From IMG/VR virus record IMGVR_UViG_3300028048_001497, positions 96,001-160,000 of that record: a stretch of DNA of 64,000 bases. The stretch is one strand, 5' to 3'. The position numbers and the translations under genes were made by a program. Below, piece by piece: positions 1 to 3,721 of this stretch (its first letter is position 1; every line of letters starts with the position of its first letter). The stretch comes from a virus (Duplodnaviria; Caudoviricetes). The notes beneath the pieces are model-generated. The model did not search any database. It was not told where the DNA came from and worked only from the letters and a program-made list of their open reading frames with translations.

Positions 1-68
1 CTAAAATGGAAACATTTTGGAAATGCTTAAATTTTGAAGGTATTGTAGCTTTGAAATGAGGTAAAATT

Positions 69-1973
69 GTGAAGATAAAATATGCAGATATGTTTTGCGG
101 TATCGGCGGTTTTCGATTAGCATTAAATACTGTTCCTTCTGAATGTGTATTTAGTTCTGATTACGATAAAAATGCACAGATTTGTTACCAAGCATTACAC
201 GGAGAATTACCATATACAAAAGATATTCGTACTTATGATTACCACGATATTCCTGATATAGATTTGTTATGTGGCGGTTTTCCGTGCTTTACAGGAGATA
301 CTTTGGTAACTACAGACGACGGGTTGGTTGCAATAAAAGACATTAAAAATGGTGATAAGGTTCTTACACATGACGGAACATATAAAACAGTTTCCGCAAT
401 ATTAGAGCAAGGCGAAAAGGAAATTTGGGACGTTGATGCTATGGCTACTGCGGGGTTAAGGACTACAGAAAATCATCTTTTTTATGTTAGAAAAAAATAT
501 AGAGAAGGACATAAAAGTGTTCGTAAGTTTACGAATCCGACGTGGGTTGAATGTAAAAATTTAACAAAAGAACATTATATGGGGTTTCCCGTTAATGATA
601 AAAATAATGAACCATGTATTTCGGGATATACTAATATTGATTTGTCCGAAGAAACTATTTGGTATTTGGCAGGTAGATATTTGGGAGACGGTTGGATTAG
701 AGCACGCAAAGACCGTAGCACAGGTGTTGGTGGAGTAATTGTTTGCTGTGGTAAACACAAAGCTGACAAGTTTGAAACTATCATTGGGGAAAAATATCAT
801 TATACTAAAGTTGAAGAAAAAACTGTTAATAAATATATTTTCTCGAACGTTGAAATGGCTAATTTCTTTGCAAAAATGGGTAAAGGTGCAGAAAATAAAT
901 TTATACCACAAGAGTTTATTGATTTGAACCCTAAATATTTATCTAAAATTATTGAGGGGTATCTTGATAGTGACGGTTATTTTACAAAACAAAAAAAATA
1001 TCGTATTACTACAATTAGTCAAAAATTAGCGTATACTTTTTCGCAGGTTGTTGCGAAAGTTTATCGTCGTCCAACGTCTATTTATTTTAGAAACAATGCA
1101 AAAACCCGTGTTATTGAGGGTAGAACCGTTAATTGCCGTCCTTTTTATATTGTAGAATTTAAAAAAGAAACAAGTTCCCAAGACAAGGCTTTTTATGAAA
1201 ATGGATATATTTGGTTTCCAATAAAGAAAGTTGAAAAAGCCAATGTTCGAGAATTTGTTTATGATATTACTGTAGAAGAAAATCATTCTTTTGTTGCTAA
1301 TAATTGTATTGCTCATAATTGTGCCAAATTTTCTATGGCAGGAGATAGAACAGGTTTTGCTTCAAAAGACCCTAGAGCACAGATGTTTTGGGAGCTTGCT
1401 AAAATATTAGAAATTAAAAAACCAACGATGTTTTGGTTTGAAAATGTGAAAGGACTGTTGAGTCACGATGAAGGAAATTCCTTTAGAACAATATTGCGGA
1501 AGTTGGATGAATTGGGGTATGATGTCGAATGGTTTTGTCCAAACGCAAAAGATACAGGCTACCCCATCATCAGAGAAAGGGTATTCATTGTCGGACATTT
1601 TAGAGAAAAACCCACAGAAAAAGTTTTTCCTATCGAAACCAAGAGTTTCACATATGATAGAAACATTAAAGTCTACCAATATAGGAGAAAAAGATTTAGA
1701 ATTACTGAAGGATATGTACCAACTTTAACGGCTTCTATGGGGACAGGTGGCAATAATGTTCCTATGGTAATAACTGATAACCAGTTGAGAAAAATAACGC
1801 CTAGGGAGTGTTTTAGGCTACAAGGAATGAATGATTCTGATATAGATAAATTACTTAATACAGGATTATCAAATTCCGCTTTATATGAACGCGCAGGTAG
1901 AACAATTTTTCAACCAATAGCTAAAAAAATAGCACAAAATATTTATAATGTATTGAATATAAAACATAAATAA
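69..1973 (+). CDS. C5-cytosine DNA methyltransferase-family protein (possible carboxymethyltransferase) with intein
   Basis: Motif I DMFCGIGG, motif IV GFP[intein]CAKFS, motif VI ENVKGL, motif VIII IRERVF, motif IX TPRECFRLQG, motif X LYERAGRT. Spliced length 289 aa. Confidence 0.9.
   Translation: MKIKYADMFCGIGGFRLALNTVPSECVFSSDYDKNAQICYQALHGELPYTKDIRTYDYHDIPDIDLLCGGFPCFTGDTLVTTDDGLVAIKDIKNGDKVLTHDGTYKTVSAILEQGEKEIWDVDAMATAGLRTTENHLFYVRKKYREGHKSVRKFTNPTWVECKNLTKEHYMGFPVNDKNNEPCISGYTNIDLSEETIWYLAGRYLGDGWIRARKDRSTGVGGVIVCCGKHKADKFETIIGEKYHYTKVEEKTVNKYIFSNVEMANFFAKMGKGAENKFIPQEFIDLNPKYLSKIIEGYLDSDGYFTKQKKYRITTISQKLAYTFSQVVAKVYRRPTSIYFRNNAKTRVIEGRTVNCRPFYIVEFKKETSSQDKAFYENGYIWFPIKKVEKANVREFVYDITVEENHSFVANNCIAHNCAKFSMAGDRTGFASKDPRAQMFWELAKILEIKKPTMFWFENVKGLLSHDEGNSFRTILRKLDELGYDVEWFCPNAKDTGYPIIRERVFIVGHFREKPTEKVFPIETKSFTYDRNIKVYQYRRKRFRITEGYVPTLTASMGTGGNNVPMVITDNQLRKITPRECFRLQGMNDSDIDKLLNTGLSNSALYERAGRTIFQPIAKKIAQNIYNVLNIKHK
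285..1319 (+). mobile_element. Intein (345 aa) with LAGLIDADG homing endonuclease
   Basis: Starts CFTGDTLV, block B TTENHLF, LAGLIDADG-like motifs LAGRYLGDG and IEGYLDSDG, ends VYDITVEENHSFVANNCIAHN followed by Cys. Confidence 0.95.
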
Positions 1974-2037: not shown

Positions 2038-2289
2038 ATGGCAACAGTTACAGTTACAAATGAAATGGACTTTGATGATTTAATGAATTTTTGTTGGAGA
2101 GGTGCAGTTGATACGCTTAAAGTTATCGAAGATAATGGTAAGCAGGAAGAATTTATGTCCATGCTTTCAGATTTGTTTAATGAGGGTGCTACTCTTACAG
2201 AAATTAATGAGTATCTTTGGCTCGATGATGATTCCATTTTTGCAGACCTAGGCATTTCAGATGATGAAGATGAGGGCGCAGAAGAATAA
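2038..2289 (+). CDS. Small, very acidic hypothetical protein
   Basis: 83 aa, SD GAAGGA, about 24 D/E versus 3 K/R, followed by a terminator. Confidence 0.8.
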   Translation: MATVTVTNEMDFDDLMNFCWRGAVDTLKVIEDNGKQEEFMSMLSDLFNEGATLTEINEYLWLDDDSIFADLGISDDEDEGAEE

Positions 2290-2298
2290 ATAAAATGA

Positions 2299-2326
2299 AG
2301 GAGTGGATAAAACCACTCCTATTTTT
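2299..2326 (+). terminator. Intrinsic terminator
   Basis: AGGAGTGG-ataaaa-CCACTCCT followed by ATTTTT. Confidence 0.75.
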
Positions 2327-2393
2327 ATATGGAGCGCCGTAAAACCCCGCCCTTTAGGGCTGGTGATATAAGGTGCGAGAACTGAATTAAGTA

Positions 2394-2422
2394 TTGACAA
2401 GTTTCAACATTTGTAGTATAAT
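2394..2422 (+). promoter_or_regulatory. Sigma70/SigA consensus promoter of tnpB
   Basis: TTGACA-17 bp-TATAAT. Confidence 0.85.
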
Positions 2423-2453
2423 ATAAACAAAACAACAAAAAGGAAGTGAGAAA

Positions 2454-3575
2454 ATGGAAAAATATATTAAGGGGTTTAAGTTTAGAATCTATCCTAACAA
2501 GACACAACAACAACTCATTAATAGTATTTTAGGCTGTTGCAGGTTTGTATATAATCATTTTCTCGACATCCGTAAAAATGAATGGAAAGCAAATCATAAC
2601 TCACTGACCTATGCTAAGACAAGTAAACTTCTCACAGACTTAAAAAAGCGAGAGGACACATCATGGCTAAAAGAAGCAGATAGTACTGCATTACAGCAGT
2701 CTTTGCGTGACCTTGACCGTGCCTATGAAAACTTCTTCAAAAAGAGAGCAGGCTATCCGCGTTTTAAGTCAAAGCATAGTAGCAGTCAGTCCTATCGTAC
2801 AATCAATCAAAAAGATGGTATTCGCATCGTAGATAAAAAGATAAAACTTCCTAAGATTGGTTTTGTGAAAATCAAGCAAAGCCGTACTTTTGAAGGTCGT
2901 ATCTTAAACGCTACGATAAGCCATATAGCTTCAGGAAAATACTTTATTTCTCTTTGTGTAGAGATGGATAAAGAAAAACTAATTTCAACTAACGATGGTA
3001 AACAGATTGGTATTGATGTTGGTTTGAAAGAATTCTATACTGATAGTAACGAAAACATCATTGCTAATCCTAGAGTTCTCAAAAAACTATCAAAAAAGTT
3101 AGCTAGAGAACAAAGGAGACTTTCTCATAAAATTCCTAAATCTAGGAATAGAGAAAAAGCTCGTATTCGTGTAGCTAAAGTTTACGAACGTATTACAAAC
3201 ATTCGCAAAGACTTTTTACACAAGTTGTCTACACGACTTGCTCGTGAAAACCAAACGATAGCCGTGGAGCACTTGAATATCAAAGGGATGTTAAAGAACC
3301 ATAGACTAGCAAAGTCTATTTCAGATGTAAGTTGGTCAGAGTTCTTCCGTCAGCTTGAGTACAAAACAGAATTACATGGTGGAGAACTACTCAAAATAGA
3401 TATGTTCTATCCATCAAGTCAAATTTGTTCTAATTGTGGTTATCAAAATGCAGAAATTAAAAATCTTAGCATCAGGGAGTGGGTTTGTCCTAAATGTGGA
3501 GCACACCATGATAGGGATATTAACGCAGCAAAGAATGTTTTGCGTAAAGCACTAGAAGAAAAACAAACAGCTTAA
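2454..3575 (+). CDS. tnpB: TnpB RNA-guided endonuclease
   Basis: N-terminal KFRIYPN...GCCRFVYN, RuvC residues GIDVG / VEHL / DRDINAA all intact, zinc finger CSNC...CPKC. Confidence 0.95.
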   Translation: MEKYIKGFKFRIYPNKTQQQLINSILGCCRFVYNHFLDIRKNEWKANHNSLTYAKTSKLLTDLKKREDTSWLKEADSTALQQSLRDLDRAYENFFKKRAGYPRFKSKHSSSQSYRTINQKDGIRIVDKKIKLPKIGFVKIKQSRTFEGRILNATISHIASGKYFISLCVEMDKEKLISTNDGKQIGIDVGLKEFYTDSNENIIANPRVLKKLSKKLAREQRRLSHKIPKSRNREKARIRVAKVYERITNIRKDFLHKLSTRLARENQTIAVEHLNIKGMLKNHRLAKSISDVSWSEFFRQLEYKTELHGGELLKIDMFYPSSQICSNCGYQNAEIKNLSIREWVCPKCGAHHDRDINAAKNVLRKALEEKQTA

Positions 3576-3721
3576 TGATATATAAATACCGTGGGGCACA
3601 CGGGAATCAACGCTTGGGGAGAGTGTGTAAGACACCAATTCTTTGGAGGCGGTGCAACGCTCAATGAACCAAGAATCCCCTACCTTTAGGCATGGGGAGT
3701 GTCAAATGGGGGTGAGTGTAT
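3540..3721 (+). ncRNA. Predicted TnpB omega-RNA (reRNA); guide begins at 3706 (ATGGGGGTGAGTGTAT)
   Basis: Right-end scaffold (taccgtggggcacacggg...tgtgtaagac...gaatcccc...gtcaa). The 5' boundary is approximate. Confidence 0.7.

Follow-up and report, generated by a model that had tools for sequence, protein, structure and literature searches.

A phage CmoA-like gene beside an intein-split, HhaI-like cytosine methyltransferase: a candidate module for 5-carboxymethylcytosine

Two adjoining virus genes are described here, one for a CmoA-like protein and one for a C5-cytosine methyltransferase homologue, at the start of a 64,000-nucleotide (nt) stretch of DNA (the window) that comprises bases 96001-160000 of a 174.5-kb IMG/VR virus record (G000; 29% G+C). 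The methyltransferase gene is an open reading frame (ORF) on the plus strand (69..1973) with a GTG start; it encodes 634 amino acids (aa) and is split by an intein of 345 aa, and Pfam family PF00145 was matched on either side of the intein. A search of the whole record with TIGR00740 gave one match, directly upstream of the window, and the stop codon of the gene that carries it lies 9 nt ahead of the methyltransferase start codon, with no gene between the two. No terminator-like site was found between them, and the pair is probably co-transcribed. The small ORF at 2038..2289 may be the final gene of this operon (Table 1). No tRNA genes were found in the window.

Table 1. Features of the locus; positions are those of the window unless a record or locus is named.
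Feature	Position	Strand	Content and evidence
CmoA-like carboxy-S-adenosylmethionine synthase gene, 244 aa	G000:C1:95325-96059 = L001:1453-2187	+	TIGR00740 149 bits, positions 12-239 of 239
3' end of CmoA-like gene	1..59	+	TGA stop 57-59; gene begins 675 nt before the window
GAGGT, ribosome-binding-site-like	58..62	+	Overlaps the cmoA stop, 6 nt ahead of the GTG at 69; read from the sequence
N-extein of methyltransferase, 72 aa	69..284	+	Motif I FCGIGGF, motifs II-III, terminal GGFP; PF00145 positions 2-70, E 1.4e-18
Class-1 intein with LAGLIDADG homing endonuclease domain, 345 aa	285..1319	+	Between Pro and catalytic Cys of motif IV; PF14890, PF13403, PF14528
C-extein, 217 aa + stop	1320..1973	+	PF00145 E 2.6e-39; TIGR00675 144 bits
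C-extein content	Catalytic Cys 1320-1322; Ala for HhaI Gln82 1323-1325; ENV 1440-1448; YPIIRER 1560-1580	+	Then short target-recognition region, motifs IX-X
Motif X Arg codon AGA	1899..1901	+	Residue 611 of precursor, 266 of spliced protein; aligns to HhaI N304 and SpCmoX R350
Small very acidic ORF, 83 aa	2038..2289	+	ORF list; phrog_5149 (unknown function), E 4.7e-11
Terminator-like hairpin (AGGAGTGG...CCACTCCT), T runs on either side	2299..2320		First such site past the methyltransferase; = L179 2480-2501

The methyltransferase gene is a single open frame of 634 codons, and splicing in silico yields a 289-aa enzyme with motif I FCGIGGF, motif IV GFPCAKFS, ENV, motif VIII YPIIRER and motif X YERAGRT. 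A preliminary description of this DNA had listed the Arg of motif X, the altered PCAKFS and PIIRER motifs and the intact catalytic Cys, ENV and motif I, and all of these are present in the spliced enzyme. That description had also proposed aligning the intein-free protein with M.HhaI and with CmoX, the enzyme of the experimentally demonstrated CmoA-CmoX-CmoY system of Synechococcus phage S-B43 (Yang et al., Nat Commun 2025; SpCmoX, PDB 8YF3; PMC12783734). HMMER paired 'yeragrtifqp' with 'ykqfgnsvvin' of M.HhaI, which places the Arg at N304, and MAFFT placed the same residue on R350 of SpCmoX (TERVGRM). Throughout a 23-sequence alignment (A1), G265 and R266 are invariant, as are the catalytic Cys, ENV and RER across the clade. 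The record holds a single C5-methyltransferase gene, and so does a relative (G001) with an intein-less allele.

The two positions changed here are exactly Gln82 (to Ala) and Asn304 (to Arg) of M.HhaI, and the canonical PCQ/G-N of the Dcm / M.HhaI type is absent. SpCmoX is altered at the same two positions (SPPC-S, G-R). In M.HhaI, Gln82 and Asn304 together flank the transferable group, and their replacement widens the pocket for larger groups, with Q82A specifically reducing methyl transfer; both residues were engineered by Lukinavicius et al. (2012) to alter the group transferred (PMC3526304). The Arg of SpCmoX touches the carboxymethyl group of carboxy-S-adenosylmethionine (Cx-SAM), the wild-type enzyme takes Cx-SAM only, and the R350N mutant has no activity (PMC12783734). 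Likewise the engineered M.MpeI N374K, which has a basic residue in place of the motif X Asn, is switched to Cx-SAM (PMC12783734). A model of an intein-less homologue (P0001, 91% identical) has the C5-methyltransferase fold with a pLDDT of 90; its best structural match is M.HhaI (TMq 0.82), and SpCmoX (8YF3) gave TMq 0.72.

The protein encoded upstream resembles CmoA in its matches. Its next-best family scored 45 bits, compared with 149 for TIGR00740; E. coli CmoA (4GEK) and H. influenzae YecO (1IM8) both align with it over the entire length, and it matches phrog_4752 with 237 bits. Of the residues with which E. coli CmoA contacts its cofactor (Y39, D62, G64, S66, D89, F137, E164 and R199; PMC3663124), all but R199 are conserved. 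The preliminary description had named an upstream CmoA-like gene as something to look for, and that gene is the one present here; since the phage thus encodes its own synthase, the ability of the host lineage to make Cx-SAM, raised there as an issue, is irrelevant. Neither this record nor G001 yielded a CmoB, and therefore cmo5U of tRNA is not what the cofactor would serve.

We compared the motifs of the enzyme with those of its relatives in the best 120 matches of a protein search with the C-extein. The nearest relatives form a tight Arg-type clade of 29 intein-less clusters with 59-92% identity (28 full-length, 262-316 aa, and one 169-aa fragment). A second Arg-type clade has about 35% identity and a length of about 360 aa, and ordinary relatives have 40-46% identity. 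The Arg is no random quirk of this sequence: G-R is retained in 28/28 full-length close homologues, where the residue after the catalytic Cys is Ala or, in a few, Cys or Phe. The two positions covary without exception in the 120 best matches: PCQ, found in all Asn-type relatives, goes with YKQxGN, and PC followed by Ala (few Cys/Phe) goes with YERxGR. We then scored 80 IMG/VR viral loci encoding relatives for a CmoA homologue. CmoA adjoins the methyltransferase in 41/43 Arg-type loci and in 0/37 Asn-type loci, and in the two Arg-type loci without it the contig stops 101 and 171 nt from the methyltransferase gene. Fisher's test gave p = 8.6e-21, which describes a clade-level association as the loci are related. 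This linkage supports the suggestion in the preliminary description of a Cx-SAM-dependent DNA carboxymethyltransferase. Two members of the same clade (P0011, P0024) have the gene order CmoA, Asn-synthase-like, methyltransferase, as in phage S-B43. In relatives the pair has the anti-restriction gene ardA as its neighbour, which we also count in favour of a DNA-modification role.

We think it very probable that the two genes are a phage DNA-modification module of the CmoA-CmoX kind, which would write 5-carboxymethylcytosine (5cxmC). By homology, the CmoA-like enzyme would convert S-adenosylmethionine (SAM) and prephenate to Cx-SAM. The methyltransferase precursor, judging from its intact splicing blocks, would first splice out the intein, joining GGFP to the +1 Cys and rebuilding the PC motif. 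To judge from the two-residue change in the pocket and the gene linkage to CmoA, the Cys of the spliced 289-aa enzyme would then attack C6 of cytosine by the usual covalent route, and Cx-SAM would donate its carboxymethyl group to C5, giving 5cxmC. The Arg of motif X would bind the carboxylate of Cx-SAM, and the Gln-to-Ala change in motif IV would make space for it. The likely purpose would be to shield the phage DNA from host restriction.

The closest precedent is the S-B43 system. Both have a phage CmoA homologue beside a C5-methyltransferase homologue, both have exchanged the Asn of motif X for Arg (ER.GR in SpCmoX and here), and both retain the catalytic Cys, ENV and RER. The Gln of motif IV has given way to Ser in SpCmoX and to Ala here, each a small residue. 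The complete order CmoA-CmoY-CmoX is seen elsewhere in members of the clade to which the present enzyme belongs. The enzyme of the window differs from SpCmoX, which modifies GC (PMC12783734), in being only 289 aa long with a very short target-recognition region (SpCmoX has 372 aa), in the intein within its catalytic motif and in the lack of a detectable CmoY. In sequence and structure the closest match is M.HhaI (73 bits), which shares the motif order and the GFPC catalytic loop; small phage 5-methylcytosine (5mC) methyltransferases (e.g. of Streptococcus phages) are likewise similar, as GFPCQ...GN enzymes with 40-46% identity. The changes at Gln82 and Asn304 set it apart from M.HhaI, and Asn-type relatives never adjoin CmoA. 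M.MpeI N374K is a laboratory point mutant with Lys, a CpG target and a reliance on host CmoA, whereas the present enzyme combines a natural Arg with a second pocket change and a dedicated phage CmoA.

Several observations weigh against a CmoA-CmoX module. The enzyme is only 22% identical to SpCmoX (E 2e-9), and its motif IV is GFPC (GGFPC) rather than SPPC (S95 P96 P97 C98), the motif that together with R350 defined the 5,615 CmoX candidates of the published survey (PMC12783734). The Gln of motif VIII is lost (YPIIRER), also a difference from SpCmoX. The equivalence of N374 in M.MpeI, N304 in M.HhaI, R350 in SpCmoX and the Arg here is drawn from alignments and from PMC12783734 and holds at the level of sequence. 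Splicing of the intein is assumed from its intact blocks. The record is a fragment, and a ligase could lie elsewhere in this genome; the 98%-complete G001 has none. Finally, the CmoA-like protein falls, at 149 bits, under the curated TIGR00740 cut-off of 193 bits, and it has Lys at the position of Arg199. On both of these last counts the validated SpCmoA is farther off: this experimentally active enzyme scores 116 bits and has Glu at that position, as do 36/47 aligned CmoA sequences (mostly phage-encoded). R199 is therefore not diagnostic, and we dropped it as a mark of CmoA membership.

An alternative is that 5cxmC is only an intermediate, which a ligase unrelated to CmoY, or one encoded in the missing part of the genome, would turn into an amide or another hypermodified base. 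The Asn-synthase-like gene between CmoA and methyltransferase in P0011 and P0024 and the incompleteness of the record would fit this. Searches with PF00733 and a clade-1 CmoY protein, however, found no CmoY or Asn-synthetase-like ligase either in this record or in G001, which is 98% complete, and the cmoA-like gene and the methyltransferase are directly coupled here. We consider an intermediate role improbable. Since no CmoY-type ligase was found, 5cxmC itself would probably be the end product, barring an unrelated ligase, and the further hypermodified cytosine put forward in the preliminary description is unsupported.

It is considerably less likely still that the enzyme is an ordinary SAM-dependent 5mC methyltransferase with an odd motif X. 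The CmoA-like gene would then have some other use, such as draining host SAM, and CmoA-driven SAM depletion has been raised as a possibility (PMC12783734). The overall sequence and fold, nearest to M.HhaI, would suit such an enzyme, but both methyl-favouring residues of the pocket are replaced, CmoA goes with the Arg type and never with the Asn type, and SpCmoX makes no use of SAM. We give equally little credence to an inactive gene, left as a relic once the intein or the motif changes had disabled it. The intein does split the catalytic PC motif, and the Gln of motif VIII is gone; yet every splicing block examined is intact, the frame of 634 codons is open, and the exteins compared with the intein-less allele give dN/dS 0.11, a mark of purifying selection. 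The invariance of the catalytic Cys, ENV and RER in the clade also speaks against a relic, as does the occurrence of intein-bearing alleles with 93-97% intein identity on several contigs (up to 333 kb read, 404 kb listed).

The intein itself starts with CFTGDTLV (Cys1), has TTENH as its TxxH block and two LAGLIDADG-like motifs, and ends with IAHN before the +1 Cys; its Pfam matches include intein and LAGLIDADG_3 families. Because the +1 Cys is the catalytic Cys of the methyltransferase, the PC motif is broken in the unspliced precursor, and splicing would restore GGFP-CAKFS. The 1035 nt of the intein are exactly missing from the allele at locus L002 of the 281-kb relative G001, where the flanks are 87-90% identical in nucleotides (87% for the N-extein). 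A search with the intein alone returned 640 longer proteins, of which the best 120 are all C5-methyltransferases with the insertion at GFP/C wherever a motif scan could read the junction. Altogether the intein family occupies this same GFP/C site in more than 100 C5-methyltransferase clusters (P0123-P0240), mostly Asn-type, with some proteins reaching 1,200 aa. Two close alleles carry inteins 93-97% identical to the present one, and the next nearest inteins (56% identity) reside in Asn-type enzymes; apart from these two alleles, the readable motif X of intein hosts is almost always of the Asn type. From this distribution the intein is a homing element associated with the conserved PC site, and it has entered a gene of the CmoX-like type without being part of its chemistry. 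A literature search on inteins in C5-methyltransferases found nothing specific.

Since the GFPC of the enzyme departs from the SPPC of the published survey, the distribution of SPPC bears on how the two are related. A 97%-identical homologue of SpCmoX was searched against 1.84 billion representatives, and SPPC was present in 139/150 of the best, in Arg-type (PC-A/S/C, ER.GR) and Asn-type (PCQ, G-N) sequences alike. SPPC therefore marks lineage and not activity, and the two-residue switch also occurs inside the SPPC lineage. A viral search with SpCmoX returned only cyanophage copies with 86-97% identity. The first two trees, in which SpCmoX was a lone and very long branch, gave no resolution. 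In a joint tree built without the trait columns, a branch with SH-aLRT 100 gathers every SPPC sequence and separates them from all those with GFPC. One clade comprising every Arg-type enzyme is rejected by an approximately unbiased (AU) test (delta lnL 470, p 2e-7); the tree came from a quick search under LG+G4 with six SPPC Asn-type rows, and the group tested was defined after the first trees. We lean, by a modest degree, towards two or more origins of Cx-SAM cytosine carboxymethylation, in the SPPC and in the HhaI-like GFPC lineages, each by one and the same switch that exchanges the Gln of motif IV for a small residue and the Asn of motif X for Arg. For the GFPC lineage taken by itself, the Arg type may have arisen once. 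The part of the supplement text of PMC12783734 that was accessible contains no match to 3300028886 (the IMG/VR contig number of a relative), IMGVR, GFPC or intein.

Other viral loci show variations on the pairing of CmoA with a methyltransferase. Some clade members have a second C5-methyltransferase gene nearby (L173:7001-10092, L175:4319-6187), once directly after the CmoA-like gene, and these phages may write two cytosine marks. Among cultured phages of Gram-positive bacteria, Staphylococcus phages vB-SscS-F1 (L087:3989-6507) and PhiSepi-HH3 (L088:3983-5682) encode a CmoA homologue (34-35% identity) together with a C5-methyltransferase that keeps GSPCQ and has Gly, neither Arg nor Asn, at the motif X position (YDVVGGV). 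In vB-SscS-F1 a CmoY-like gene (35% identity to SpCmoY) lies between the two. These pairs could represent a third, arginine-less solution. The closest cultured CmoA (42% identity) is that of Erwinia phage vB_EamM_Y3 (L086; 12641-15232 of KY984068.1), beside an asparagine synthase and an oxygenase; we rejected the Erwinia jumbo phages as a model for this locus, as no C5-methyltransferase adjoins their CmoA.

In the close intein-bearing alleles (L090:11923-12633, L091, L092) the pair of CmoA and intein-bearing methyltransferase is followed by an ArdA anti-restriction gene on the opposite strand; in the window the acidic ORF stands in this place. Just past the module (2332-3719, tnpB ORF 2454-3575) lies an IS200/IS605-type TnpB element (OrfB_IS605, Cas12f1-like TNB), which is missing from the syntenic region of G001. 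A perfect TTGACA-N17-TATAAT is found ahead of tnpB at 2394-2422; in a promoter scan, promoter-like sites were no more frequent than in shuffled sequence. The best relatives of this TnpB are from Mitsuokella, Selenomonadaceae and Veillonellaceae (74-78% aa identity), which gives a weak hint only as to the host of this phage with its 29% G+C. Two genes upstream of cmoA an HNH homing endonuclease is encoded as a free-standing gene (phrog_374, E 1.5e-90; L001:3-1028, G000:C1:93875-94900). Mobile elements of three kinds thus bracket the module: the HNH gene, the intein and the insertion element.

The CmoA-CmoX idea of the preliminary description is supported here but was already published: 5cxmC was established as a natural phage DNA base in December 2025, from one enzyme lineage (PMC12783734). 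Two points retain interest. One is the difference at the level of lineage and the evidence it gives that the cofactor switch happened more than once; the other is the position of the intein on the catalytic Cys, a curiosity by which the activity of this allele would hinge on protein splicing. From this locus and the related ones it seems that the same switch was made in a second lineage of methyltransferases, one much nearer to M.HhaI, at two pocket positions that protein engineers had already singled out. If this is true, the published SPPC filter overlooks a whole CmoA-linked branch of compact 289-aa enzymes close to the best-studied bacterial methyltransferase, and such enzymes would instead be recognised by a residue other than Gln after the catalytic Cys, G-R in motif X and a CmoA neighbour. 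They would offer small enzymes for carboxymethyl labelling of DNA, and the estimate of how frequent this camouflage is in gut-type jumbo phages would become broader.

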